Source: Actinomycetes bacterium (GTDB lineage Bacteria; Actinomycetota; Actinomycetes; JAHEKZ01). Taken from it: a stretch of DNA of 37,199 bases. Position numbers and translations under genes: made by a program. Position 1 is the first letter of the stretch. Every line of letters begins with the position of its first letter. The notes beneath the pieces were generated by a model, which had not been told where the DNA came from, did not search any database, and saw nothing but the letters and a program-made list of their open reading frames with translations. The stretch is from contig DASUFV010000072.1 of NCBI GenBank assembly GCA_036274415.1, positions 1 to 37,199 on the forward strand, read 5' to 3'. Of the stretch, positions 4,479-28,710 are shown one piece after another.

Positions 4479-4694
4479 TCGGCGCTCCTTTGGATTCCGG
4501 GACAACCCGCGGAGGCGGGAACCTCCAACGTAGTTGAGCGGCCGGGTGACGGCTGCCCGATTCATCCAAGTGTGTGATGGCGGGGCAATCAATTCGTCAC
4601 ACCAGAGGCGCGCGCCCGAGTGGCGGCTGCGCTAGCGTGCCCGGGGTCAAGGCGGGCGTTCACGTTCGCGGCTCTGGACGACGTGAGAGGTCTG

Positions 4695-5162
4695 ATGCGG
4701 ATCCACATCGGCTCCGACCACGCTGGGTTCGAGACCAAGCAAGCGCTGGTCGGCGAGTTGACCCGGCTCGGTCATGACGTCATTGATCATGGACCGCACG
4801 AGTACGACGCGCAGGACGACTACCCCCCGTTCTGTCTGGCGGCCGGCGCTGGAGTGGTGGCAGACCCGGGAAGCCTCGGCATCGTGATCGGAGGCTCCGG
4901 CAACGGCGAGCAGATGGCGGCGAACAAGGTGGCTGGCGTTCGCGCTGCCCTGGTCTGGAGCGTTGAGATCGCACGGCTGGCGCGCGAGCACAACGACGCC
5001 AACGTGATGTCCATCGGCGCACGCATGCATGACGAGACCGACGTGTTCGAGTTCGTGCGAGTGTTCGTCGAGACGCCCTTCAGTGGCGACCCTCGCCACG
5101 TCCGACGGATCAGCCAGCTCGCCGAGTATGAGAAGACTGGCGTCCTACCGCCAGTCCCGTAG
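4695..5162 (+). CDS. rpiB: Ribose-5-phosphate isomerase B
   Basis: The product begins MRIHIGSDHAGFETKQALVGELTRLGHDVIDHG...GGSGNGEQMAANKVAGVRAA, which is RpiB/LacAB family. I chose the ATG at 4695, preceded by GAGAGG. The track ORF begins at 4620. Confidence 0.9.
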   Translation: MRIHIGSDHAGFETKQALVGELTRLGHDVIDHGPHEYDAQDDYPPFCLAAGAGVVADPGSLGIVIGGSGNGEQMAANKVAGVRAALVWSVEIARLAREHNDANVMSIGARMHDETDVFEFVRVFVETPFSGDPRHVRRISQLAEYEKTGVLPPVP

Positions 5163-5187
5163 GTGACGATGAACGGCAATCGTCGGC

Positions 5188-5979
5188 ATGCCTGAGGGTC
5201 ACACGATCCACCGCCTTGCCAACCAGCATCGCTCCCGGTTCGTCGGGGAAGTCGTGCAGGTATCGAGTCCTCAGGGTCGGTTCCTGGACGCGGAGCGGCT
5301 CGACGGTCGTCAGATGGTGCGAGCCGAAGCATTCGGCAAGCATCTGCTCTTCGAGTTCGAGGGCCGTCGGTTCGTTCACGTTCATCTCGGCCTGTTCGGA
5401 CGCTTCCTGACCGGCGCGCAACCTGCGCCCAATCCTGGTCCGAGTGTGCGCATGCGCCTCGAGGTCGGCGATTGGTACTCCGACCTGGTGGGTGCCACAC
5501 GATGCCAGCTGATCGACGGTGACCAGCGTGCGAGCCTCATCGCCCGGCTTGGCCCGGATCCCCTTCGACGGGGCGCTGACCCCGCCAGGGCTTACGCACG
5601 ACTGTCGCGCAGCACGCAGCCGATCGGACTGCTGCTGATGGACCAGTCGGTGGTCGCCGGCATCGGCAACGTGTATCGAGCCGAGTTGCTGTTTCTTGCT
5701 GGTTTGGACCCCTACCGCCCGGGTCAGCACGTGGAGGCGTCCACTTGGGATGGCATCTGGAACAACGCGCGCTCGTTGATGCGTGCTGGGGTGAGGAGCG
5801 GCCGGATCATCACGACTGATCCGCGTGACCGCGAGCACCTCGGGCGGCTGGTGCGACCGTCCGACGCTCACTACGTGTACAAACGCGCGGGGCAGTGGTG
5901 TCGCCGCTGCCACAAGAACGTGCGTGCAGCAGATCTCGCCGGACGCGTCCTCTACTGGTGCCCGACGTGTCAGTCGTAG
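5188..5979 (+). CDS. nei: Fpg/Nei-family DNA glycosylase (endonuclease VIII-like)
   Basis: The N-terminus MPEGHTIHRLA carries the catalytic Pro2/Glu3 arrangement. An H2TH region is present (IGLLLMDQSVVAGIGNVYRAELLF). The C-terminus has a zinc finger, CRRCHKNV...YWCPTC. Confidence 0.88.
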   Translation: MPEGHTIHRLANQHRSRFVGEVVQVSSPQGRFLDAERLDGRQMVRAEAFGKHLLFEFEGRRFVHVHLGLFGRFLTGAQPAPNPGPSVRMRLEVGDWYSDLVGATRCQLIDGDQRASLIARLGPDPLRRGADPARAYARLSRSTQPIGLLLMDQSVVAGIGNVYRAELLFLAGLDPYRPGQHVEASTWDGIWNNARSLMRAGVRSGRIITTDPRDREHLGRLVRPSDAHYVYKRAGQWCRRCHKNVRAADLAGRVLYWCPTCQS

Positions 5980-5991
5980 CGAGCTGAGGCC

Positions 5992-7239
5992 TCAGAACAC
6001 GAAGGGACAGTGTGGCGCTCTGGGTGCCTCGAACGCCGCACTCACCGCGGCGAGCGATCCCTGGGTGTGCTCGGTCAGCCAGGACGCGTCACCGTGAGCC
6101 TGAAGCGTCGGACCACCGAGGAGAACCGCCCCGAGCGACCGAATGTCGAGCGAGATGTCAGGTGAGGTGGACGTACGTTCGCAAGTGGCGCCCTCCGAGC
6201 CAGCGCTGAGGCGCCACGTACCTGCGTTGGCTTCGAAGTCGCGATCGGCTACCTCGAGCACGACGTCGACGTCCCGTGCGTAGGTACGACCGGCAAGTGC
6301 CGATGGCAGGTCGAGGATGCGCACCCACATCGTGTCACCCACCTCGCGGACGCTCTGGCGCGAGTGCTCGAGCCACGTCAGCACTGGATCGTCGACCGGA
6401 AGGTTCCAGTGGCGTGTTGTGGTCATCAGGTCCAGCGAGAAGCAGTAGCGCCAGAGTGCTGCGTGGGCGGCTGCGTCACGACTCAGCAGACGCTGGACCT
6501 TGACCTCCCCCTCGCCGTATCGACCGGTCGGCCATGCGGCTTTCAGTGAGTACCGCACTAGACCGCGCACACCGTTGTCGTCCTCGGCGATCACCGTCAT
6601 CGCTCGAGTCGCGCCCTCCCGATAGCGAGGCGGGTCGAAGACGTGACGCGTGTTCCATGCTTCGGTCAGCTCGAGCATCCCTCCGCGCGTCCCGCGCACG
6701 TGGTCGTACACCGGCTTGACGTACTCGAAGTCCGAGCTCGTGTCGACCATCCGCAGACGGAGAGACGGATCGTGTGGAGCGTCCACCAGCGTGCTATGAG
6801 TGTGAGGAACGGTGAGCTTCATGCCTTGCGTGGCCAGGCCGTAGCCGAAGCGCCCGTAGATCGCGGCGTCGGCCGCCCAGAGCGCAGCGATGGGTTCATT
6901 GCGTGCGATCCCGTCAGCGTGGAGCACCCCGAGCATGCGGCGCAGCACACCGCGTCGGCGGTGGGTCGGGCGAACCGCGATCAGCGTGACGCCGGCGGTC
7001 GGCAGCTCTCCGCCTGGAGTACTGGTGTTCAGCGTGAAGTTGGCACACAGGCCGATGACCTCGTCGCCTTCCCACGCGAAGAAGGTGCGGTCGTCTTCGA
7101 CGACCCCGTAGATCGGCGACTCGATGTCGTCCTGCTCGACAGGCTCACCGAACGCGGTCTCGTCAAGCTCCTGCGCCGCCTCCAGGGCCGCCTTGCGGTC
7201 GCCAAAGTCCTGGAGCATGTCCCGGATCTCAATGGCCAT
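5992..7239 (-). CDS. Eis-like GNAT N-acetyltransferase (three-domain, UPF0256-type)
   Basis: The 415-aa product has a GNAT acetyl-CoA motif, IAVRPTHRRRGVLRRML. Its length and C-terminal region (...LSLDIRSLGAVLLGG...) resemble Eis-family enzymes. The assignment rests on recall, not on a search. Confidence 0.8.
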   Translation of the reverse strand: MAIEIRDMLQDFGDRKAALEAAQELDETAFGEPVEQDDIESPIYGVVEDDRTFFAWEGDEVIGLCANFTLNTSTPGGELPTAGVTLIAVRPTHRRRGVLRRMLGVLHADGIARNEPIAALWAADAAIYGRFGYGLATQGMKLTVPHTHSTLVDAPHDPSLRLRMVDTSSDFEYVKPVYDHVRGTRGGMLELTEAWNTRHVFDPPRYREGATRAMTVIAEDDNGVRGLVRYSLKAAWPTGRYGEGEVKVQRLLSRDAAAHAALWRYCFSLDLMTTTRHWNLPVDDPVLTWLEHSRQSVREVGDTMWVRILDLPSALAGRTYARDVDVVLEVADRDFEANAGTWRLSAGSEGATCERTSTSPDISLDIRSLGAVLLGGPTLQAHGDASWLTEHTQGSLAAVSAAFEAPRAPHCPFVF

Positions 7240-7299
7240 GTGCCTTTGCCTACCACTCCCGCATCATCGGAGGCCATTGGATTAGTGGCGGGTCGGCCG

Positions 7300-7305
7300 T
7301 AGGGT
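7300..7305 (+). promoter_or_regulatory. Putative -10 hexamer (TAGGGT) for a leaderless DinB-family transcript
   Basis: A TANNNT-type hexamer ends 6 nt before the GTG start at 7312. No Shine-Dalgarno sequence lies in between. This geometry is typical of actinobacterial leaderless mRNAs. Confidence 0.3.
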
Positions 7306-7311
7306 CGCGCC

Positions 7312-7830
7312 GTGAGCTGGTCATCCCCAACGGTCGAACGGCGCTTCGTCCCCGACGAGGGGGACGAGCGCACCCTCCTGAATGCCTTTCTCGAGTTTCA
7401 CCGAGAGACGTTCCTCTGGAAGTGCTCCGGGCTCACTGGTGAGCAGCTGGCAACCCGCTCAGTGTCCTCGACCGATATGACGTTGCTCGGGCTGATTCGT
7501 CACCTGACGGACGTCGAGCGGCACTGGCTCCGCGACGTGGCGGTCGGCGAGTCGATCGAATCGCGCTACTGGGACAAGCCGGACCGCGACTCAGACTTCC
7601 TGCACATCGATGCTGCAGCAGCCGAGGCCGACTACGTCGCCTACATCGAGGAGGTCGAGATCTGTCGCGAGAACCAGGGCATCGATCTCGACGCGACGAT
7701 CGATGCCCCCAACGGTCGCGACCGGTTCACCTTTCGCTGGATCCTGATTCATCTGATCGAGGAGTACGCCAGGCACAACGGTCATGCGGACTTGATCCGC
7801 GAGGCCATAGACGGTGCGACTGGCGAGTAA
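7312..7830 (+). CDS. DinB-superfamily protein (DUF664 / mycothiol-transferase-like)
   Basis: The product contains FLEFHRETFLWKCSGLTGEQLATRSVSSTDMTLLGLIRHLTDVERHW...LIHLIEEYARHNGHADLIRE. This is the characteristic DUF664/DinB four-helix pattern with conserved His residues. Confidence 0.8.
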   Translation: MSWSSPTVERRFVPDEGDERTLLNAFLEFHRETFLWKCSGLTGEQLATRSVSSTDMTLLGLIRHLTDVERHWLRDVAVGESIESRYWDKPDRDSDFLHIDAAAAEADYVAYIEEVEICRENQGIDLDATIDAPNGRDRFTFRWILIHLIEEYARHNGHADLIREAIDGATGE

Positions 7831-8005
7831 GTCCCGCGTCCGCCAACTCCTACGCGAGGCGCATGGCCACTCCAACCCTCAGGTCATCCCCGCAGCGCAG
7901 ACGGAACGCGACAGCCTTACCAACTTCCTTCAGATGTCGCTCGGCGTCACCGGCAAGCTCGACGATTCGTGCACCGGTCTCATCGATCCATAGCACTGCC
8001 ACGCG

Positions 8006-9133
8006 TCAGTCCCGCCTCAGTCGTTCGGAAACCCACCGGTGGAACTCCTGGATGTGGTGTTCGCCGGGAACGAGCACCCCGCCCTGGCGGTAATTGCGAG
8101 AGGACATACCGACCTGGCAGCGCTCGCACGCGTCGAAGTCCTGCTCGTTGACCCGGTGGAAGAGCTCGACGGACTTCGTGAGGTCGAACCCGCTGTCGAG
8201 CGTCTCCTGCGTGTAGAGCCAGTCGCAGTCGACTCTCGTGCGGTCGGCTGACAGGGGGGTCATTCGGTGGAAGATCACATGATCGGGAACGAGGTTGATG
8301 AACACCTGCGGGGCAACGGTCACCGCGTAGTACCGCCGGTCGTGTTCCTCCGGTAGGTCGGGAATGGGTGCACCGCCGACCGAGCCGTCGACTGTGAACG
8401 CATCGACATCGGCACCGAAGGACGCCCCGTGTCCGACGAAATACTGCGCCGCGAGACCGTCGGCGAACTCCGGGATCACATCAGTGAGCTCTGGATGGAT
8501 GGTCGCGCAGTGATAGCACTCCAGGAAGTTCTCGATGATGAGCTTCCAGTTGGCGGCAACGTCGTAGCTGATGCGGTGCCCAAGGTGCAACGAGCCGATC
8601 TGCCATCGGTCGATGACGGCAGCTCCGCCCAAACGATCGGCCACTGCGCCCAAGACGTCGTCCTCGAAGGACGGCGGGGTGGGTGCCAGGCACACCCAGA
8701 CGTAGCCGAGCCATTCCCGAAGGTGGACGCCGACAAGTCCGAACTCGTCACGATCGACATCGTGCATCGACGCCAGATTGGGCGCCGCGATCAGCCGGCC
8801 GTCAAGCGCGTACGTCCACGAGTGGTAGGGGCACTGAAACTTTCGCGTGACCTGACCACGTGGCTCAGCGCACAGCAAGGCACCACGGTGGCGGCACACG
8901 TTGAGAAACGCACGCAGCACGCCGTCATTGCCGCGCACGATGAGCACGCTCTCTCGACCCACGGTCGCAGTCTGGAACGCACCTGGCTCGGATAAGTCGG
9001 TCGAACGAGCTACCGCCGACCACGTCTGCTCGAAGATGCGCTCTTGCTCGAGACTGAAGTGGTCAGGGTCGGTGTACTCGCGACCGGCCGGTGTCGATCG
9101 AAAGCTCTCGGGCAACGCGCGCATCTCAGTCAC
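8006..9133 (-). CDS. Rieske [2Fe-2S] non-heme-iron oxygenase, alpha subunit (alpha-only type)
   Basis: The Rieske motif is CRHRGALLC...CPYHSW. The mononuclear-iron motif is ENFLECYHCATIHPEL. The start is either the GTG at 9133, which forms a GTGA overlap with the upstream stop, or the ATG at 9124. No beta-subunit gene follows. Confidence 0.88.
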   Translation of the reverse strand: MTEMRALPESFRSTPAGREYTDPDHFSLEQERIFEQTWSAVARSTDLSEPGAFQTATVGRESVLIVRGNDGVLRAFLNVCRHRGALLCAEPRGQVTRKFQCPYHSWTYALDGRLIAAPNLASMHDVDRDEFGLVGVHLREWLGYVWVCLAPTPPSFEDDVLGAVADRLGGAAVIDRWQIGSLHLGHRISYDVAANWKLIIENFLECYHCATIHPELTDVIPEFADGLAAQYFVGHGASFGADVDAFTVDGSVGGAPIPDLPEEHDRRYYAVTVAPQVFINLVPDHVIFHRMTPLSADRTRVDCDWLYTQETLDSGFDLTKSVELFHRVNEQDFDACERCQVGMSSRNYRQGGVLVPGEHHIQEFHRWVSERLRRD

Positions 9134-9510
9134 GACTCACCGCCGGCTGCTGCCACGGGGGAGCTGACCCAGATCACGTCGTCGATCACGGTCACCTGGT
9201 GCACGCGCACCGGCTTGGTGGCTGGGAGCCCATGCACTTCGCCATTGCGTACGTCGAAGCACGAACTGTGCAGTGGACATTCCACGAGGTGACCCTCGAG
9301 CCATCCCTCGGAGAGCGATGCGCGCTGGTGGCTGCACGTGTCGTCGATGGCGTGGAAGACACCGCCGACGTTGAAGATCGCGATCGGTACGTCGAGGACG
9401 ACGCGCGCGCATTCGCCTTCGGGGATGTCTGAAGCGCGGACTGTTGGCCGCGCCTCGGTAAGAGCTGGCAGAGCTGGCAGAGCTGTCACAGCCTGGTCGA
9501 TCAGTTCCAC
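9130..9510 (-). CDS. Rieske-type [2Fe-2S] ferredoxin (oxygenase electron-transfer component)
   Basis: The product contains CSHQRASLSEGWLEGHLVECPLH, which is the CxH...CxxH pattern. I chose the GTG at 9510 because a GAGGGAG Shine-Dalgarno sequence lies 6 nt upstream. The track ORF extends to 9690, but that extension is Arg/Ser/Pro-rich and overlaps the riboswitch. The start remains uncertain. Confidence 0.78.
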   Translation of the reverse strand: MELIDQAVTALPALPALTEARPTVRASDIPEGECARVVLDVPIAIFNVGGVFHAIDDTCSHQRASLSEGWLEGHLVECPLHSSCFDVRNGEVHGLPATKPVRVHQVTVIDDVIWVSSPVAAAGGES

Positions 9511-9655
9511 GAGTGTCTCCCTCGTCAACGCTGGTACGTGGCGCGACTTCGGGGAGCAGCTCGACAGCGGAACGGCCGACGGCGACCGCCGGCTGTTCCT
9601 CGCCTTCGGGCCTCCCCACGAGGCCGCGGACACCCGAGCGCATGGGCGGTCGGGG

Positions 9656-9860
9656 GAGCTGGCAGGTCTTCGGACTTGCGGGCGAACCACACGAACCCAT
9701 GGCTCGTGTGGTTGTGGTCCTACTGGCCGTCGCTTCCCGAGGCTGACGCCTCAGTGCTTGGTGACGGCGGTCGTTCCCGCTAACCGCTGCGGGGCAGTCC
9801 CGGATTCGCACCGGGTTCCCTCTTGCGACGACCTTCCTGGCGAGAAGGTCGAACCAGCTC
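9656..9860 (-). promoter_or_regulatory. Cobalamin (AdoCbl/B12) riboswitch, Rfam RF00174-like
   Basis: All elements below are read 5'->3' on the minus strand. The P1 helix pairs GAGCTGG (9860-9854) with CCAGCTC (9662-9656). A P2 hairpin pairs CGACCTTC with GAAGGTCG (9851-9829). The conserved core is AGGGAA-CCCGGTGCGAATCCGGG-ACTGCCCCGCAGCGGT (9821-9783). It is followed by GCACTG...GGGAAG and by a peripheral hairpin, AACCACACGA/TCGTGTGGTT. The B12 box is AAGTCCGAAGACCTGCC (9677-9661). Order and spacing match the E. coli btuB leader as I recall it (AGGGAA..CCAGUGCGAAUCUGG..GCAGCGGU..CACUG..GGGAAG..AAGCCCGAAGACCUGCC). Confidence 0.9.
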
Positions 9861-9867
9861 GGCGCAC

Positions 9868-9873
9868 ACAGTA
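9868..9873 (-). promoter_or_regulatory. Putative -10 hexamer (TACTGT) for the riboswitch transcript
   Basis: This TANNNT-type hexamer on the minus strand ends 7 nt upstream of the first P1 nucleotide at 9860. No convincing -35 element was seen. Confidence 0.3.
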
Positions 9874-9971
9874 GGGCCGACGCCGCGAGTTCGGCAGGTT
9901 GGACGCGCCGCGGTTTCACGGGACGGGACGGTGACGAGCACGACATCGACGGAGCGACGTTGACGAGGGGT

Positions 9972-10045
9972 TGGAGCGGGTGACGGGAATCGAACCCGCG
10001 TGGCCAGCTTGGAAGGCTGGGGCTCTACCATTGAGCTACACCCGC
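9972..10045 (-). tRNA. tRNA-Gly (anticodon UCC), CCA encoded
   Basis: The minus strand reads GCGGGTG-TA-GCTC-AATGGTA-GAGC-C-CCAGC-CTTCCAA-GCTGG-CCAC-GCGGG-TTCGATT-CCCGT-CACCCGC-T-CCA. This gives a full cloverleaf with a TCC anticodon. Confidence 0.95.
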
Positions 10046-10096
10046 GAAACCGCCGCCTCGAGCGGCGGTCGGCGTCTAACCCTAGCCGCCCGCAAG

Positions 10097-10169
10097 CGGG
10101 GCGTAGCGTAGTGGCTAGCGCGCCTGCTTTGGGAGCAGGAGATCGGGAGTTCGAGTCTCCCCGCCCCGA
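10097..10169 (+). tRNA. tRNA-Pro (anticodon UGG)
   Basis: The sequence reads CGGGGCG-TA-GCGT-AGTGGCTA-GCGC-G-CCTGC-TTTGGGA-GCAGG-AGATC-GGGAG-TTCGAGT-CTCCC-CGCCCCG-A. This gives a full cloverleaf with a TGG anticodon. The 3' CCA is not cleanly encoded. Confidence 0.95.
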
Positions 10170-10248
10170 CCCCCACAGGTCCATCCGGGCCTGTGACGCG
10201 TCGATCCTCGATCGGCTCGATCGGCACATCCAAGGAGCACAGACCCAC

Positions 10249-11598
10249 GTGAAGACCGATGTCGAGACCCTGAGCCCCACGCGCGTGCGGTTGTCGATCG
10301 AGATTCCGTTCGACGAGCTACAACCCAACGTCGATGCGGCGTACAAGAAGATCGCGTCGCAGATCACGATTCCGGGTTTTCGTAAAGGCAAGGTTCCGGC
10401 TCAGATCATCGACCAGCGAGTGGGACGCGGTGCGGTGCTCGACGAGGCGGTCAACGAAGCACTCCCCAAGGCGTACGGCGATGCGGTCTCGGAGAACGAC
10501 ATCAAGGTGCTCGGACAGCCGGACGTCGAGGTCGGGGAGTTTGCCGACGGGCAACCCCTCACGTTCACCGCAGAGGTAGACGTCCGACCGGAGATCGAGC
10601 TTCCCGACATCGCCTCGCTGGAGGTCACCGTCGACACCGCCGAGGTGTCCGACGACGACATCGACACCGAGCTCGAACAGCTTCGTCAGCGTTTCGCGAC
10701 GCTGAAGGCCGTCGACCGTGGCGCACAGAAGGGTGACTTGCTGTCCATCTCCATGGCCTCGACCAAGGACGGCGAGCCCGTGGAAGCACTCTCGGCGACT
10801 GGTCTTACCTACGAGGTCGGCTCTGAGTCACTCCTGCCAGGGCTCGACGACGCGGTCACGGGTCTGCGCGAAGGCGAGGAAGCGCAGTTCAGCGTGACAC
10901 CCGAGAGCGGCGACCTGCAGGGACAGTCGGTCGACGTCAGCGTCACGGTCTCATCGGTGAGAGAGCGGGAGCTCCCGGATCTCGACGACGCGTTCGCCGA
11001 GCTGGTCAGCGAGCACGACACGTTGGAGGAGCTGCGCAACACCATTCGGAACGAACTGGAGCCACGGAGCAAGGTTCAGCAGCTCATGGCGGCTCGTGAT
11101 GCCGTGCTGAATGCGCTCGTCGAGCAGGTCGATGTGCCGCTCCCCGAAGGGGTCGTTGCGAACGCCGTTGCCGACCACTTCCAGGACGGACACGGGGACG
11201 CCGACCACAAGGATGAGTTCGAGAACCAGGTGCGTGAGTCATTGACGCGTGACTTGGTGCTGGACACGTTGGCCGACCGCGATGACGTCCAGGTGACGCA
11301 GGCCGAGCTGACCGAGTACTTGATCAGGCAGGCGCCTCAGTACGGCATGTCACCAGACCAGTTTGCTCAGGCCATCGCTCAAGCCGGTCAGGTGAGCGCC
11401 ATCGTCGGCGACGTGCGGCGCTCCAAGGCGTTGTCCCTCGTGCTCGAGCAGGCGACCGTGCTGGATCGCGACGGCAACGTCGTTGAGATGTCCGCCAGTG
11501 GCGGAAGCGAGTCCGAGACGAGTGAAGACGCAGACGAAGCAACCGATCAGGGCACCGGCGAGGGCGCCGGCGAGGACGTCCGCGACGACACGGCCTAG
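10249..11598 (+). CDS. tig: Trigger factor (ribosome-associated chaperone/PPIase)
   Basis: I set the start at the GTG at 10249, with AAGGAG 11 nt upstream. The product begins VKTDVETLSPTRVRLSIEIPFDEL and carries the ribosome-binding motif GFRKGKVP. It ends in an acidic tail. The part of the track ORF before 10249 runs across both tRNA genes and is spurious. Confidence 0.93.
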   Translation: MKTDVETLSPTRVRLSIEIPFDELQPNVDAAYKKIASQITIPGFRKGKVPAQIIDQRVGRGAVLDEAVNEALPKAYGDAVSENDIKVLGQPDVEVGEFADGQPLTFTAEVDVRPEIELPDIASLEVTVDTAEVSDDDIDTELEQLRQRFATLKAVDRGAQKGDLLSISMASTKDGEPVEALSATGLTYEVGSESLLPGLDDAVTGLREGEEAQFSVTPESGDLQGQSVDVSVTVSSVRERELPDLDDAFAELVSEHDTLEELRNTIRNELEPRSKVQQLMAARDAVLNALVEQVDVPLPEGVVANAVADHFQDGHGDADHKDEFENQVRESLTRDLVLDTLADRDDVQVTQAELTEYLIRQAPQYGMSPDQFAQAIAQAGQVSAIVGDVRRSKALSLVLEQATVLDRDGNVVEMSASGGSESETSEDADEATDQGTGEGAGEDVRDDTA

Positions 11599-11617
11599 CC
11601 CGGGTTCTTCCGTCAGC

Positions 11618-11653
11618 GAACACCCCGCCCCTTCGGATGGAGCCGGGGTGTTC
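11618..11653 (+). terminator. Stem-loop downstream of tig (possible terminator or processing site)
   Basis: GAACACCCCG (11618-11627) pairs perfectly with CGGGGTGTTC (11644-11653). The stem starts 20 nt after the tig stop. There is no clear U-tract, so the function is uncertain. Confidence 0.4.
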
Positions 11654-11712
11654 CGACGTTAGGGTCCATGTACGTATTTCGGGTACGTCGTTTCGGCTTG
11701 AGAGGTGGACCT

Positions 11713-12387
11713 GTGACTGACCGTCCGATCACCGGCCAGCCCCTGCTCGTTCCTGGGGCAGCCGATCCATTCGGCGATCCATTCGGCCGGGCGCCGCAGC
11801 CGGGCAACAATCTCGGGTTCGACGACTCGGTGTACCAGCGCCTGTTGCGCGAGCGGATCATCTTCCTCGGGTCGGCGGTCGAGGACAGCATCGCCAACGC
11901 CCTGTCGGCTCAGATGCTGCTGCTGGCGGCAGAAGACCCCAGCAAAGACATCTATCTCTACATCAACTCGCCAGGTGGGTCTGTTTCCGCCGGTATGGCG
12001 ATCTACGACACGATGCAATACGTACCGTGCGACGTCGCAACCGTCGCGATGGGGCTGGCCGCCTCGATGGGGCAGTTCCTCCTGTGTGCGGGCGAACGCG
12101 GTAAGCGCTACGCCCTGCCGCACGCGCGGATCATGATGCACCAGCCGTCCGGTGGCATCGGGGGCACTGCGTCCGACATCAAGATTCAAGCCGAGCAGAT
12201 GCTCTACACCAAGAAGAAGATGGCCGAGCTGATCGCCGAGCACACCGGTCAGCCGCTCGACGCGATCGAAGCCGACTCCGACCGTGACCGTTGGTTCACC
12301 GCCGGCGAGGCGAAGGACTACGGATTCGTCGACCACGTTGTCAGCCGAGCCCACGACGTCGCAGGCAGCGGCGGAACGAACGCCTGA
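11713..12387 (+). CDS. clpP1: ATP-dependent Clp protease proteolytic subunit 1
   Basis: The product contains [65 protein letters not shown] and later MMHQP. The catalytic Ser and His contexts are present. I prefer the GTG at 11713, preceded by GAGAGGTGGA. The ATG at 11668 is an alternative. Confidence 0.9.
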
Positions 12388-12417
12388 CCCGATCTCGGAC
12401 GGAAGGACCCCACGAAC

Positions 12418-13080
12418 GTGAGCAAGCTCTGGACCGCCGGTCAGACTGTCGGCGACCTCATGCGGCAGTCGCCCCAAGCGCGGTACATCCTTCCGGAGTT
12501 CCGGGAACGCACAGCGCAAGGTGAGCGGCTCCACAACCCGTACACCAAGCTCTTCGAAGAGCGGATCATCTTCCTCGGCGTGCAGATCGATGACGCGTCC
12601 GCCGACGACGTCATGGCGCAGTTGCTGTGTCTCGAGTCGATGGACCCCGACCGTGACATCTCGATCTACATCAACTCACCAGGTGGTTCCTACACCGCGA
12701 TGACGGCCATCTACGACACGATGCAGTTCATCAAGCCAGACATCCACACCGCGTGCTTGGGTCAGGCGGCCTCGGCTGCTGCCGTCCTTCTGGCCGCGGG
12801 CACTCCTGGCAAGCGCTCAGCGCTGCCACACTCACGCATCTTGATCCACCAGCCGTACACCGAGGGTGGCGGTCAAGGGTCCGACATCGAGATCCAGGCC
12901 AACGAGATCCTTCGCATGCGCGGTGAGATGGAGGGCATCTTGGCCCGTCACACCGGCAAGAGCGCGGACGACGTCCGCCAGGACATCGAACGCGACAAAA
13001 TCCTGACCGCAGATGATGCGAAGGACTACGGCATCGTCGATCAGGTGATCTCCAGCCGGAAGACCTCTGCGGCCGGGTGA
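12418..13080 (+). CDS. clpP2: ATP-dependent Clp protease proteolytic subunit 2
   Basis: The product contains ARYILPEF...[52 protein letters not shown]. This matches the N-terminus typical of actinobacterial ClpP2. The start is the GTG at 12418, after GGAAGGA. The ATG at 12460 is an alternative. Confidence 0.9.
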
Positions 13081-13234
13081 GAATCGCTGAGGATCAGGGG
13101 CTGATCGGGCGACTCGCCCGCGACCAGAGCAGGTATTCCGGGCCGGTGAGGGGTACCGTCGTCTGGTGCGATGTCGCTGAGACAGCGCGCGGTGTCGGAC
13201 GTACATCGACCTGACGGGTACTCGAGGGAGTCAC

Positions 13235-14515
<1,281 letters not shown>

Positions 14516-14527
14516 CGACCCAGCGAG

Positions 14528-15208
14528 TTACTTCTCGATCGCGTCGCGAACCTTCAAAGCGGTTTCGGCCGCGGTCCCTTGCATCGGAGACATCGCGAAC
14601 GCCCCAAAGGTGTCGTCGCTGATCCAGGCACACGTCCCACCGGTCGGCAGTTCGAGGCACTTCATCTGACCCCCATGAGGTCCCGCGTTCACCTCGGTGA
14701 GCTTGAGGGATGAGCCAGCTTGGGCGAGTCCTCCCTCGAACCCGGCAAAGTAGTCCTCAGCTCCACCGGATACGTCGTCGGTGCCTGCTTCCCCGCCCAT
14801 GACGAAGAGCATCGTCCGGTCGCCCTGGAAGAGGCCGACCTCTACGTCGACGTCTCCGCCGAATTGGCTCGTGGCCTTCTCCAGTTCACTCTGCAGCTGT
14901 TGCGCGGCGGGTGAGCTGGCGTCCATCTTCTCCAGTCCGAGCATGGTGTCCGGGATTTCGATCTGGGAGCCGGCGAACATCATCCGGTACCCGGCAAACG
15001 CGAGCACGCCGACGAGTGCGAGAACCACCGCACCGATCACCAATGGCAGAGCGTTCGACGAGCTCTGCTTCGGGGGGAGGCCGACGTGACCGTAGTTGGC
15101 GTATTCCTTGTTGACAGCCAGGTGCGGGTTCGACGCCCCAGGTGCTTGCCCAGGGTTGGGCGCCGGCGGCGTGACCGAGCCACCGAAGAAGTCGTCATTC
15201 CCGTTCAT
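14528..15208 (-). CDS. Hypothetical membrane-anchored protein (Pro/Gly-rich N-terminus, one TM helix, ~150-aa extracytoplasmic domain with two Cys)
   Basis: The ORF has GC3-rich coding composition. The transmembrane segment is LPLVIGAVVLALVGVLAFAGY. The C-terminal domain contains ...KCLELPTGGTCAWISDD... I recognise no family. Confidence 0.65.
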   Translation of the reverse strand: MNGNDDFFGGSVTPPAPNPGQAPGASNPHLAVNKEYANYGHVGLPPKQSSSNALPLVIGAVVLALVGVLAFAGYRMMFAGSQIEIPDTMLGLEKMDASSPAAQQLQSELEKATSQFGGDVDVEVGLFQGDRTMLFVMGGEAGTDDVSGGAEDYFAGFEGGLAQAGSSLKLTEVNAGPHGGQMKCLELPTGGTCAWISDDTFGAFAMSPMQGTAAETALKVRDAIEK

Positions 15209-17921: not shown

Positions 17922-19286
17922 GTGACCAGTGAGGGCGACGACGCAACCCGGATCGACGAGGCCGAGCGGCTCTTGGCGCTCGAGCTGGAGCTCATCCGAC
18001 GCGCGCCGGAGTCCCAGATCGAACCGACCCTTGATCGAGTGCAGAAGGCGCTCGATCTGATGGGCAACCCAGAACGTGCCTACCCGACCATTCACGTCGC
18101 AGGAACGAACGGGAAGTCGTCGACCGCCGCGATGGTCGACTCGCTACTCACCGCGTACGGGGTTCGTACCGGACGATTCACCAGCCCGCACCTCGAGACG
18201 CTCCGGGAGCGGATCCGCCTCGATGGTGAGCTGATCGACTCCGGGCGGCTGCTGGCCGCGTGGGAAGACCTCGCGTCGATCCTCGCCATCGTGGAGTCCG
18301 ACGGCGGGCGTCAACTGACGTACTTCGAGGTCGTCACCCTGCTGGCGTTCGTGGCGTTCGCGGACACCCCTGTCTCCGTCGGCATCCTGGAAGTCGGTCT
18401 CGGCGGCCGCTGGGACGCCACGAACGTCATCGAACCGAAGGTCGGCGTCATCATGCCGATCGGCCTCGACCACACCGACTGGCTCGGCGACGACCTGGCG
18501 ACCATCGCCGGGGAGAAGGCCGGAATCATCAAGCCGGGCCAGATCACCGTCGTTGCCGGACAAGATCCAGAGGCGACCGATGTGCTCGTCGAACGGTCCG
18601 CCGCTGTGGGCGCGACGTTGGTGCGTGAGGGCGTCGACTACGGATTGGTCGATCGACAGGTTGCTGTAGGGGGCCAGCAGCTGACCATCAGAGGAATTGG
18701 CGGTGTCTATCAGGACGTGTTCCTGCCGCTGTTCGGAGAACACATGGCGCGCAACGCCGCCACTGCGCTGGTCGCCGTGGAGATGTTCCTCGGCGGGGGA
18801 GCTGGAGCCTTGGACGCCGAGGTGGTCGAGCAAGGCTTTGCTGCAGTCAGCGTCCCTGGCCGCCTGGAGGTGATTCGCCGGAGCCCCACGGTCCTGCTCG
18901 ACGTGGCCCACAACCCGCACGGCGCTGCGGCACTGGTTGAAGCCGTCGCCGAGGCGTTCAGCTTCCAAAGGCTGGTCGGCGTTGTCGCCGTTCTCGGCGA
19001 CAAGGACGCGGCGGGGCTGTTGACCGAGCTCGAGCCGCTCCTCGACGAGATCGTGATCACCCAGTCGTCATCTCCACGAGCCATCGACGCCGACGACCTC
19101 GGATCGCTCGCGTCCGAAGTGTTCGGATCCGAGCGCGTGACCGTGATGCCGTCACTTCCGGACGCCATCGAGGCCGGTGTGACGGCCGCGGAGTCCGAAG
19201 GCGACCTGGAGGGGGCAGGGGTCCTGGTCACCGGATCGGTCACCGTCGTCGGCGAGGCGCGCACACTGCTGCGTCGTCGTCGTTGA
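17922..19286 (+). CDS. folC: Bifunctional folylpolyglutamate synthase / dihydrofolate synthase
   Basis: The product has a Mur-ligase-type P-loop, HVAGTNGKSSTAAM, and the overall FolC architecture. It sits in the conserved valS-folC-ndk neighbourhood. Confidence 0.9.
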   Translation: MTSEGDDATRIDEAERLLALELELIRRAPESQIEPTLDRVQKALDLMGNPERAYPTIHVAGTNGKSSTAAMVDSLLTAYGVRTGRFTSPHLETLRERIRLDGELIDSGRLLAAWEDLASILAIVESDGGRQLTYFEVVTLLAFVAFADTPVSVGILEVGLGGRWDATNVIEPKVGVIMPIGLDHTDWLGDDLATIAGEKAGIIKPGQITVVAGQDPEATDVLVERSAAVGATLVREGVDYGLVDRQVAVGGQQLTIRGIGGVYQDVFLPLFGEHMARNAATALVAVEMFLGGGAGALDAEVVEQGFAAVSVPGRLEVIRRSPTVLLDVAHNPHGAAALVEAVAEAFSFQRLVGVVAVLGDKDAAGLLTELEPLLDEIVITQSSSPRAIDADDLGSLASEVFGSERVTVMPSLPDAIEAGVTAAESEGDLEGAGVLVTGSVTVVGEARTLLRRRR

Positions 19287-26581: not shown

Positions 26582-26713
26582 CCCGCCGAGTGCACACCTG
26601 GTGGACGCCAGATCCCGCCGAGTGCACACATGGTGGACGCCGGGCGGCGTCGAGTGCAGCCCCACCCGTGCACTCGGTGGTCTAATCCGTCAACTGGGTG
26701 TGCACTCGGCGGG
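26582..26713. repeat. Cluster of five copies (three direct, two inverted) of a CGAGTGCA-centred unit in the rodA to radical-SAM spacer
   Basis: Two direct 28-mers, CCCGCCGAGTGCACAC(C/A)TGGTGGACGCC, lie at 26582-26609 and 26614-26641 with one mismatch. A partial direct copy, CGAGTGCA, lies at 26651-26658. Inverted copies lie at 26665-26680 and 26696-26713. The last one is perfectly complementary to 17 nt of copy 1 and 16 nt of copy 2. Confidence 0.85.
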
Positions 26714-26751
26714 AAGTAGGCTGGAGCGGTTCCCTTCCCCGGAGGTTTTCG

Positions 26752-28710
26752 ATGTCGGCGGCCACGGTCGAGTCGGTGTTCCCCCGGCTCGAGGCCCTGC
26801 TCCCCAAGGTCAACAAGCCGATCCAGTACGTCGGCGGTGAGTTGAACGCGGTCAACAAACCGTGGGACGCCGCAACGGTCCGATGGGCGTTGATGTATCC
26901 GGACGCCTACGAGATCGGCGTGCCCAACCAAGGCGTCCAGATCCTTTACGAGGTGCTCAACGAGCAGCCGGACGTTCTGGCTGAGCGCACGTACTCGGTC
27001 TGGCCTGATCTCGAGCACCTCATGCGGCAGCACGGAGTGCCGCAGTTCACCGTCGACGCGCATCGCCCGGTTGCCGCGTTCGATGTGTTCGGCCTCTCGT
27101 TCGCCACCGAGCTCGGCTACACGAACCTGCTGACCGCCCTCGATCTCTCCGGAATCCCGCTGCATGCGGCCGATCGTGACGACACTCACCCGATCGTCGT
27201 GGCCGGTGGACATGCCGCATTCAACCCTGAGCCGATCGCCGACTTCATCGATGCCGCGGTGCTCGGCGACGGTGAACAGGTCGCGCTCGAGATCAGCGCC
27301 ATCATTCGCGACTTCAAAGCCGAGGGGTCACCAGGCGGACGCGACCAGCTGCTGCTGCGCCTCGCTCAGACCGGAGGCGTGTACGTCCCGGGCTTCTACG
27401 ACGTCGAGTACCTGCCGGACGGACGGATCAAGCGCGTTGTGCCCAACCGCCCCGGCGTTCCGTGGCGGGTCAGCAAGCACACCGTCACCGACCTCGACGC
27501 GTGGCCGTACCCGAAGAAGCCGCTCGTCCCCTTGGCCGAGAGCGTTCACGAGCGGGCGAGCGTCGAGATCTTCCGCGGTTGCACGCGCGGCTGTCGCTTC
27601 TGCCAGGCCGGCATGATCACCCGGCCGGTTCGCGAACGCAGCATCACTGGCATCGGTGAGATGGTCGAGCAGTCGCTGCAGGCGACCGGCTTCGAGGAGG
27701 TCGGTCTGCTGTCGCTGTCTAGTGCTGACCACTCAGAGATCAAGGACGTCGCCAAGGGACTCGCCGATCGCTACGAGGGAACCAACACCTCGCTGTCACT
27801 ACCCAGCACCCGCGTGGACGCGTTCAACATCGATCTGGCGAACGAGCTCAGCCGCAACGGCCGCAGGTCGGGTCTCACATTCGCCCCAGAGGGCGGCAGC
27901 GAACGCATTCGCAAGGTGATCAACAAGATGGTCACCGAAGAGGACCTCATTCGCACCGTCGCCACCGCATACGGCAGCGGCTGGCGCCAAGTGAAGCTCT
28001 ATTTCATGTGCGGGCTGCCAACCGAGACCGATGATGACGTGCTTCAGATCGCCGCACTCGCCCGCGAGGTCATCAAGACCGGTCGCGAGGTGTCAGGTCG
28101 CCGCGACATCAGGTGCACGGTCTCGATCGGTGGTTTCGTGCCCAAGCCGCACACGCCGTTCCAGTGGGCCGCCCAGCTCGACCACGAAACCACTGACGCT
28201 CGCCTCCTCAAGCTACGCAACGCGATCAGGGACGACAAGGACTACGCCAAGGCGATCGGATTCCGGTACCACGACGGCAAGCCCGGCATCGTCGAAGGAT
28301 TGCTCTCGCGGGGCGACCGGCGGGTAGGACGCGTGATCGAGGCGGTGTGGCGCGACGGCGGTCGCTTCGACGGGTGGAGCGAGCACTTCAGCTTCGAGCG
28401 GTGGATGCGTTGTGCGGACGCCGCACTCGCCGACGAACCGGTCGACGTCGATTGGTACACGACCCGCGAACGCGACTTCTCAGAGGTGCTGCCCTGGGAC
28501 CATCTCGACTCCGGTCTCGACAAGGACTGGCTGTGGCAGGACTGGCAGGACGCGCTCAGCGAGGTTGAGGTCGACGACTGCCGGTGGACGCCGTGCTTCG
28601 ACTGTGGGGTGTGTCCGCAGATGGGCACCGACATCGAGATCGGGCCCACCGGCAAGACCTTGTTGCCGCTCACCGCTGTCGGTGCGTCGGCCGACAAACT
28701 GCGCGCCTGA
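26752..28710 (+). CDS. Radical SAM protein with N-terminal B12-binding-like domain (TIGR03960-type), function unknown
   Basis: The product carries the CxxxCxxC cluster motif RGCTRGCRFCQAGM. I chose the ATG at 26752, with GGAGG 6 nt upstream. The track ORF starts at 26698, inside the repeat cluster. Confidence 0.87.
   Translation: MSAATVESVFPRLEALLPKVNKPIQYVGGELNAVNKPWDAATVRWALMYPDAYEIGVPNQGVQILYEVLNEQPDVLAERTYSVWPDLEHLMRQHGVPQFTVDAHRPVAAFDVFGLSFATELGYTNLLTALDLSGIPLHAADRDDTHPIVVAGGHAAFNPEPIADFIDAAVLGDGEQVALEISAIIRDFKAEGSPGGRDQLLLRLAQTGGVYVPGFYDVEYLPDGRIKRVVPNRPGVPWRVSKHTVTDLDAWPYPKKPLVPLAESVHERASVEIFRGCTRGCRFCQAGMITRPVRERSITGIGEMVEQSLQATGFEEVGLLSLSSADHSEIKDVAKGLADRYEGTNTSLSLPSTRVDAFNIDLANELSRNGRRSGLTFAPEGGSERIRKVINKMVTEEDLIRTVATAYGSGWRQVKLYFMCGLPTETDDDVLQIAALAREVIKTGREVSGRRDIRCTVSIGGFVPKPHTPFQWAAQLDHETTDARLLKLRNAIRDDKDYAKAIGFRYHDGKPGIVEGLLSRGDRRVGRVIEAVWRDGGRFDGWSEHFSFERWMRCADAALADEPVDVDWYTTRERDFSEVLPWDHLDSGLDKDWLWQDWQDALSEVEVDDCRWTPCFDCGVCPQMGTDIEIGPTGKTLLPLTAVGASADKLRA

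Follow-up and report, generated by a model that had tools for sequence, protein, structure and literature searches.

A cobalamin riboswitch lies in the leader of gbcAB in Phaeobacter inhibens, according to a preprint of December 2025 (bioRxiv 10.64898/2025.12.19.695462): growth on betaine requires gbcAB only when cobalt is limiting, and MtgBCD is used when B12 is available. In the same study, the riboswitch precedes gbcAB in Rhodobacterales and in Sinorhizobium meliloti, with both systems present, and is absent where MtgBCD is missing. Co-occurrence of B12-dependent and B12-independent betaine demethylases is reported there to be 93% alphaproteobacterial among B12 producers. Here we describe a two-gene operon preceded by a cobalamin riboswitch in an actinobacterium, found in a stretch of 37,199 nucleotides (the window) that makes up contig DASUFV010000072.1 of the Actinomycetes bacterium assembly GCA_036274415.1. 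It encodes a Rieske-type ferredoxin and a Rieske oxygenase, and we propose, with moderate confidence, that it is a B12-repressed, B12-independent betaine demethylase standing in for a B12-dependent route.

B12-independent isozymes of the nrdEF type are placed under cobalamin riboswitches. Most of these riboswitches control genes of biosynthesis or transport, and the well-studied genes outside these two groups follow an isozyme rule, as metE does (PMC2211319). As for B12-dependent betaine use, about 5% of marine mtgC reads were assigned to Actinomycetota (PMC12478193).

The window contains a single cobalamin riboswitch (Rfam RF00174, the classical cobalamin riboswitch model), its aptamer spanning 9873-9644 on the minus strand. 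It scores 104.6 bits (E = 2.3e-25), well above the gathering score of 31.5, and covers all positions of the model (1-189 of 189); the B12 box is the variant AGCACUG, and a 33-nt hairpin is inserted in the 3' half. The aptamer ends at 9644 and the ferredoxin gene starts at 9510 on the same strand, which places the former within the 5' leader of the gene under its control. Given the E-value and this same-strand position in a leader, a chance match is implausible.

The rest of the leader, with the putative expression platform, occupies 9511-9643 (minus strand) and was characterized by folding and by a scan for promoters and terminators. The 134-nt linker between the aptamer and the ferredoxin start forms a long, GC-rich, imperfect hairpin without a U-tract. 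Further down, a small hairpin presents the Shine-Dalgarno sequence GAGGGAG (9524-9518) in its loop, and its stem extends into the start codon. CUCCCCC on the 3' strand of the aptamer's P1 helix is complementary to the Shine-Dalgarno sequence; no clear kissing-loop partner for the Shine-Dalgarno hairpin was found by eye. Translational or Rho-dependent control is usual in high-GC actinobacteria, and the leader features would fit either mechanism or both.

The first gene encodes a Rieske-type [2Fe-2S] ferredoxin of 126 aa (9130-9510, minus strand). The longest open reading frame (ORF), 9690-9130, is too long, since it runs into the aptamer; we prefer the GTG start at 9510 because the Shine-Dalgarno sequence lies 6 nt upstream of it. 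From this start, the protein carries the cluster ligands CSH...CPLH and matches Pfam Rieske with 65.9 bits and the HcaC-like family of NCBIfam with 126 bits. Ferredoxins of orthologous loci share 45% identity with it and the same cluster ligands. The part of the gene encoding the N-terminus contains a perfect 9-nt tandem duplication (9461-9478, minus strand; CTGCCAGCT twice) that encodes LPALPAL.

The second gene (8006-9133, minus strand) encodes a 375-aa alpha-only Rieske non-haem-iron oxygenase of the Group V (quaternary-amine) clade, with the Pfam domains Rieske and Ring_hydroxyl_A (E = 9.8e-50) and the motifs CRH...CPYH and ENFLECYHCATIHPEL. Bases 9133-9130 of the minus strand read GTGA, the GTG start of the oxygenase overlapping the TGA stop of the ferredoxin. 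The gene call of the public collection begins at an ATG three codons downstream, which gives a protein of 372 aa and a gap of 5 nt to the ferredoxin; the two genes are tightly coupled under either start. The next downstream gene (7312-7830, plus strand), of the mycothiol S-transferase/DinB family, is convergent, and lying on the opposite strand it limits the operon to two genes, with neither a beta-subunit nor a reductase gene among them. The reductase must come from a gene at another place in the genome or from a different system. An earlier reading of the sequence alone (hereafter the sequence-only reading) had described this operon as only a Rieske ferredoxin and an alpha-only oxygenase, coupled through GTGA and free of beta-subunit and reductase genes: the ORFs, the Pfam domains and the overlapping bases bear it out, as does the tblastn search considered below.

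The best NCBIfam family for the oxygenase is GbcA (202 bits), followed by HcaE (116 bits), and its best matches among solved structures are 3n0q, Stc2 (3vca, E = 2e-48) and CntA (6y8j, E = 1e-42). The Rieske cluster ligands are C80-R-H82 and C101-P-Y-H104. In the alignment with CntA, ENFLECYHCATIH is placed on DNYMECYHCGPAH: ENFLECYHC of the oxygenase faces DNYMECYHC of CntA, with the bridging glutamate and the cysteine pair kept. Thus aligned to CntA site residues are E205-C206-Y-H208-C209...H213 and D332, of which H208, H213 and D332 correspond to its iron ligands; the roles of the bridging glutamate (E205) and the cysteine pair (C206, C209) in the quaternary-amine clade are described in PMC10952381. 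No beta subunit occurs among the recurrent neighbour families at orthologous loci, as expected of an alpha-only architecture. Best family, structures and site residues all agree with the clade of GbcA, CntA (YeaW) and Stc2 that the sequence-only reading had named.

More than 5,000 homologues were recovered by a protein search. The 120 best, at 65-70% identity, belong to Streptomyces, Actinoplanes, Pseudonocardia, Hoyosella, Kibdelosporangium, Nocardiopsis and others, and are named either generically or, by JGI, "glycine betaine catabolism A". Except for the window's own protein, nothing in this search exceeded 70% identity, and scans of a genome collection and of metagenomes, from which we fetched 80 loci each, held no relative above 68%. 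Among 143 full-length homologues, the window oxygenase is 64-68% identical to 133 family members, whose mutual identity is about 74%. A neighbour-joining tree places it deep within the family, as sister to a homologue from a Kutzneria metagenome-assembled genome (MAG; locus L018) and near those of Sciscionella and Prauserella (Pseudonocardiales). At a conservation of at least 97%, the family has 153 near-invariant alignment columns; the window oxygenase agrees with 147 of them, and its six changes (L15P, A105S, M204L, L220I, G245A, V311T) are conservative. Judged by its sequence, the window oxygenase is a member of this family whose chemistry is probably unchanged.

We then surveyed the genomic context of the family by gene clustering and tblastn in 112 loci of at least 7 kb. 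At least one choline, betaine or one-carbon gene is present in 101 of them, and at least two in 85. A ferredoxin reductase (78%), a Rieske ferredoxin (71%) and the choline dehydrogenase BetA (54%) are frequent neighbours in these loci, and an IclR regulator is found in 73% of family loci. Also recurrent are mycothiol-dependent formaldehyde dehydrogenase, betaine-aldehyde dehydrogenase, a dimethylglycine-oxidase-like FAD/GcvT protein, PurU, an MTHFR-like protein, sarcosine oxidases, SHMT, GcvH and BCCT transporters. With NCBIfam models, BetA (864 bits), S-(hydroxymethyl)mycothiol dehydrogenase (691 bits) and PurU all score above their cut-offs, and the reductase is HcaD-like.

In several loci, dimethylglycine oxidase (DMGO), monomeric sarcosine oxidase and the oxygenase follow one another on one strand. 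The gene order in Hoyosella subflava, by independent Pfam annotation, is PurU-DMGO, IclR, reductase-ferredoxin, IclR, oxygenase-BCCT, then a GMC oxidoreductase. The pairing of a ferredoxin gene with the oxygenase gene behind it and no reductase recurs in the metagenomic locus L168, adjoined by a divergent IclR gene; the intergenic region there is too short for a riboswitch. The neighbourhood of the orthologues is thus the pathway from choline through betaine, dimethylglycine and sarcosine to glycine, together with formaldehyde handling. In these clusters the oxygenase is the only candidate for the step from betaine to dimethylglycine, a role we infer from context. Because the orthologues sit in betaine and one-carbon clusters, the most likely reaction is glycine betaine to dimethylglycine and formaldehyde.

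We now propose a function for the operon. Its two genes would supply the ferredoxin and the catalytic subunit of a three-component Rieske monooxygenase. The oxygenase would hydroxylate one N-methyl group of glycine betaine, and the methyl would leave as formaldehyde to give dimethylglycine: this would be the first step of glycine-betaine catabolism. Plentiful coenzyme B12 would bind the 5' leader and turn the operon off, through blocked translation initiation, Rho-dependent termination or both. The enzyme would be made only under B12 scarcity, when the cell could not run a B12-dependent route for that step, presumably a betaine:corrinoid methyltransferase of the MttB superfamily and of MtgBCD type. 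An oxygen-dependent substitute for such a route was one of two hypotheses of the sequence-only reading. The orthologues in betaine clusters and the precedent of gbcAB and MtgBCD speak for it and the orthologues' lack of the riboswitch against it; drawn from a single contig, it is the best-supported reading.

How the operon came to its present site can be read from close relatives, which we retrieved by their ValS: the window ValS is 83-87% identical to that of uncultured "Actinomycetes bacterium" MAGs and about 72% identical to that of Candidatus Nanopelagicales. The relatives share a conserved backbone, with pepN, rpiB, GNAT and mycothiol S-transferase on one side and tRNA-Gly, tRNA-Pro, tig, clpP, clpX and valS on the other, and the interval adjoining tRNA-Gly is variable among them. 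DNA of the site was at hand for three relatives (L161, L162 and L164). Aligned by blastn to L162, window positions 4692-7832 and 9973-14514 match, with breakpoints at 7832/7833 and 9972/9973. The window-specific segment of 2.1 kb (7833-9972) corresponds to riboswitch, ferredoxin and oxygenase and nothing else. It is flanked by the mycothiol S-transferase gene and by tRNA-Gly (anticodon TCC; 9972-10045, minus strand), the latter immediately upstream and bounding the variable site. The cassette is therefore a lineage-specific insertion adjoining tRNA-Gly.

No riboswitch was found at the site in L161, L162 or L164. Because these relatives have neither the riboswitch nor the genes there, the two probably arrived as one unit, and joint arrival argues for a functional linkage. 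In L164, a phage-type integrase (18197-18859, plus strand) stands directly beside the tRNA-Pro/tRNA-Gly pair, downstream of tig, which marks the tRNA site as an integration hotspot; L161 has unrelated genes at the site. The cassette has a GC content of 0.647 against 0.655 for the window; the two are indistinguishable and say nothing of a foreign origin.

L162 (17867-18991, minus strand) and a JGI contig carry in the cassette's interval a gene for a flavin adenine dinucleotide (FAD) protein like monomeric sarcosine oxidase or N-methyl-amino-acid oxidase. That of L162 scores 196 bits on NF008425 and lies downstream of the mycothiol S-transferase gene. Between L162 and the window, one oxidative N-demethylase-type gene is swapped for another at this site. 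A heliorhodopsin gene adjoins valS in several relatives (L163, L164 and the JGI contig, where it lies between valS and clpX), which suggests an aquatic host lineage. The window has instead an unannotated ORF of 226 aa (14528-15208, minus strand) with no Pfam or NCBIfam match.

Several observations weigh against the proposed function. One concerns the riboswitch itself: scans at the Rfam gathering threshold found no cobalamin riboswitch at any of 49 homologous loci, and motif scans of 160-170 loci for the riboswitch core and the B12 box picked out the window, a short match in L157 and a candidate in L051. Both of the latter were rejected as cobalamin riboswitches, Rfam scans of each having found none. 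An nhmmer search of the first 80 loci with the window riboswitch as single query gave no match, a result weak on its own, and we found no cobalamin riboswitch upstream of a Rieske gene in Actinobacteria in the literature. Because the orthologues are without a riboswitch, its coupling to the oxygenase has no comparative support in the family. The sequence-only reading had named two findings that together would tell against it: orthologues without riboswitches, which is what we observe, and a firm place in a family of unrelated known function, which the oxygenase does not have, the inferred function of its family being the predicted one.

The leader and the surroundings of the cassette add to this. 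A consensus scan detected no intrinsic terminator and no sigma-70 promoter in the leader, its fold is no better than that of shuffled sequence (z-score -0.59, not significant), and an OFF switch is assumed by analogy with known cases. We found no MttB-type or corrinoid-protein gene in the window or at any locus; the corrinoid motif DxHxxG...SxL...GG gave in all of about 170 loci one false positive only, inside a dimethylglycine oxidase. Besides the cassette, the window holds housekeeping genes and a TIGR03960 "B12-binding radical SAM" gene (26698-28710, plus strand; 670 aa, 695 bits) between rodA and RNase E. This gene is shared with close relatives and is the only other B12-related item in the window. 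By tblastn, the 37 kb contain neither a reductase (searched with reductase representatives) nor any choline, betaine, dimethylglycine, sarcosine or one-carbon neighbour of the cassette.

The score of the enzyme itself lies below the curated cut-off of 670 bits for the GbcA equivalog (NF058607), and five orthologues tested on the same model, at 207-231 bits, fall below it too: the actinobacterial family is outside the equivalog, a separate clade with redox partners of HcaC/HcaD type in place of GbcB. The window protein, though predicted to act like GbcA, is thus not classed as one. The terminal branch of the window oxygenase is long (0.183), and as a lone copy without betaine neighbours, transporter, reductase or IclR it may have changed its substrate. 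We found no biochemical study of the actinobacterial oxygenase family in the literature.

In descending order of likelihood, we rank the rival explanations as one-carbon economy, change of substrate, fortuitous juxtaposition and corrin chemistry. The foremost keeps enzyme and substrate as proposed and lets the riboswitch tie betaine oxidation to the one-carbon or methionine economy of an organism with no B12-dependent betaine demethylase, a possible but doubtful account. With B12 scarce, for example, MetH would stall and the methyls of betaine would end up as formaldehyde or methylene-tetrahydrofolate, or betaine use would be rebalanced. The folate and one-carbon genes of the orthologous clusters (PurU, the MTHFR-like protein, SHMT and GcvH) are in its favour, together with the largely alphaproteobacterial (93%) co-occurrence of the two demethylases among B12 producers and the lack of a corrinoid-protein gene near any actinobacterial locus examined. 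It runs, however, against the isozyme rule, which holds for every well-studied riboswitch gene outside transport and biosynthesis (PMC2211319) and also for the only studied riboswitch-controlled betaine oxygenase (bioRxiv 10.64898/2025.12.19.695462). A change of substrate after horizontal transfer, to proline betaine, carnitine, gamma-butyrobetaine, choline or the like, with an alternative route that is B12-dependent (of MtpB, MtcB or MtyB type), seems to us rather unlikely. The long branch and the loss of all betaine-pathway neighbours would be explained by it, and the clade does span substrates, proline betaine for Stc2 and carnitine for CntA; MttB-superfamily enzymes for carnitine, proline betaine and gamma-butyrobetaine are among the work cited in PMC12478193. 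Yet the near-invariant columns are kept in all but six conservative positions, and at about 66% identity the betaine-cluster family is a much nearer relative of the oxygenase than Stc2 or CntA is. The same long branch and lost neighbours, with the unique riboswitch, would be marks of neofunctionalisation if the cassette were a mobile, self-contained, B12-gated oxygenase module with a new substrate. It would then replace a B12-dependent reaction without a known oxygen-dependent alternative, candidates being another MttB-superfamily demethylation, a B12/radical-SAM reaction or a corrinoid or lower-ligand step; we regard this as distinctly unlikely.

That the juxtaposition is fortuitous or decayed, the riboswitch being a remnant of another gene's control or the cassette a passenger not regulated by B12 in practice, is very unlikely in our view. 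The arrangement is indeed unique to one contig among about 170 loci, at an integration hotspot beside tRNA genes, and no convincing expression platform was found. The aptamer is nevertheless intact and full length, neither ORF is broken and no cofactor ligand is missing, the riboswitch has the strand and spacing of a 5' leader, and with no riboswitch at the site in the relatives it is not a local leftover. The second hypothesis of the sequence-only reading, an oxygenase of aerobic corrin-ring or lower-ligand chemistry (a replacement of CobG, CobZ or BluB, or an enzyme of corrinoid remodelling) feedback-repressed by B12, is extremely improbable, and we reject it on context and active-site type. 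The riboswitch itself is the one feature that speaks for it. The oxygenase matches no CobG, CobZ or BluB family in Pfam or NCBIfam, no cobalamin-biosynthesis gene was found with these models among the scanned window proteins, and there is none among the recurrent neighbours of the orthologues. These orthologues are embedded in betaine catabolism, and the active site of the window oxygenase is of the quaternary-amine type.

If the operon is indeed a B12-repressed betaine demethylase, B12 would gate glycine-betaine turnover in one uncultured and probably aquatic lineage of actinobacteria as it does in marine Alphaproteobacteria, the same riboswitch solution having been reached independently with a different enzyme system. 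It would also predict a B12-dependent betaine demethylase of MttB type in Actinomycetota. The most useful by-product of the analysis is a likely betaine monooxygenase family of Actinomycetota, identified from synteny. Annotated only as "aromatic ring-hydroxylating dioxygenase", it is found at hundreds of genome-collection sites and in several thousand database proteins. From gene order, this family very probably supplies the first enzyme that has been missing from the choline-to-glycine pathway of Streptomyces, Actinoplanes, Pseudonocardiales, mycobacteria and relatives, and it has apparently never been assayed; the literature yielded no characterised actinobacterial three-component betaine monooxygenase.

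Other features were seen at the orthologous loci. A tandem glycine riboswitch (57.2 and 33.5 bits) lies at 8962-9154 (minus strand) of L029, from a Mycobacterium MAG, about 2 kb from the orthologue, as would fit a pathway that ends in glycine. A thiamine pyrophosphate (TPP) riboswitch (L150, 4586-4701, minus strand; 69.9 bits) adjoins a distant homologue of 44% identity. Just downstream of the Geodermatophilus orthologue there is a borderline Guanidine-II match (L036, 7127-7179, plus strand; 33.8 bits for a threshold of 32). Conserved directly downstream of betA in many Streptomyces betaine clusters is the gene of the MTHFR-like protein, which is short (about 278 aa) and resembles MTHFR only weakly (27 bits); it was seen in L028, L079 and 27 other loci.

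With isozymes of the metE type (PMC2211319), the operon shares the principle that a riboswitch represses a cofactor-independent enzyme when B12 lets the dependent one work. It differs in that its dependent partner is presumed only and in that the step under control is catabolic, not essential and biosynthetic. Stc2 (3vca) and CntA (6y8j) have in common with the window oxygenase the ECYHC motif with bridging glutamate and cysteine pair, the 2-His-1-Asp iron site and the alpha-only architecture (PMC10952381). They differ in substrate and genomic context, and their C-terminal halves align weakly with it; CntA, moreover, does not demethylate but releases trimethylamine by C-N cleavage.

GbcA/BmoA of Pseudomonas aeruginosa and Chromohalobacter salexigens (NF058607; PMC12478193) is the best named family, alpha-only and with the same predicted reaction. 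Those systems have two components, with a flavin/[2Fe-2S] reductase, and their oxygenases are proteins of about 420 aa. The actinobacterial family has proteins of about 375 aa, works with an HcaC-like Rieske ferredoxin and an HcaD-like FAD reductase, and scores far below the equivalog cut-off.

The closest known system is gbcAB of P. inhibens, other Rhodobacterales and S. meliloti. In both cases a cobalamin riboswitch lies in the leader of a Group V Rieske oxygenase assigned to betaine demethylation, and the proposed logic is common to both: a B12-independent enzyme used only when B12 or cobalt is scarce. The window comes from Actinomycetota and gbcAB from Alphaproteobacteria, and the two oxygenases belong to different clades, that of the window reaching 202 bits on a GbcA model with a cut-off of 670. 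Its partner gene is a Rieske ferredoxin instead of the GbcB reductase, with no reductase in the operon; its riboswitch is not conserved among orthologues, and its B12-dependent counterpart is presumed. The regulatory idea is thus already published: what the window brings is a ferredoxin-dependent, betaine-type Rieske oxygenase cassette in another phylum.

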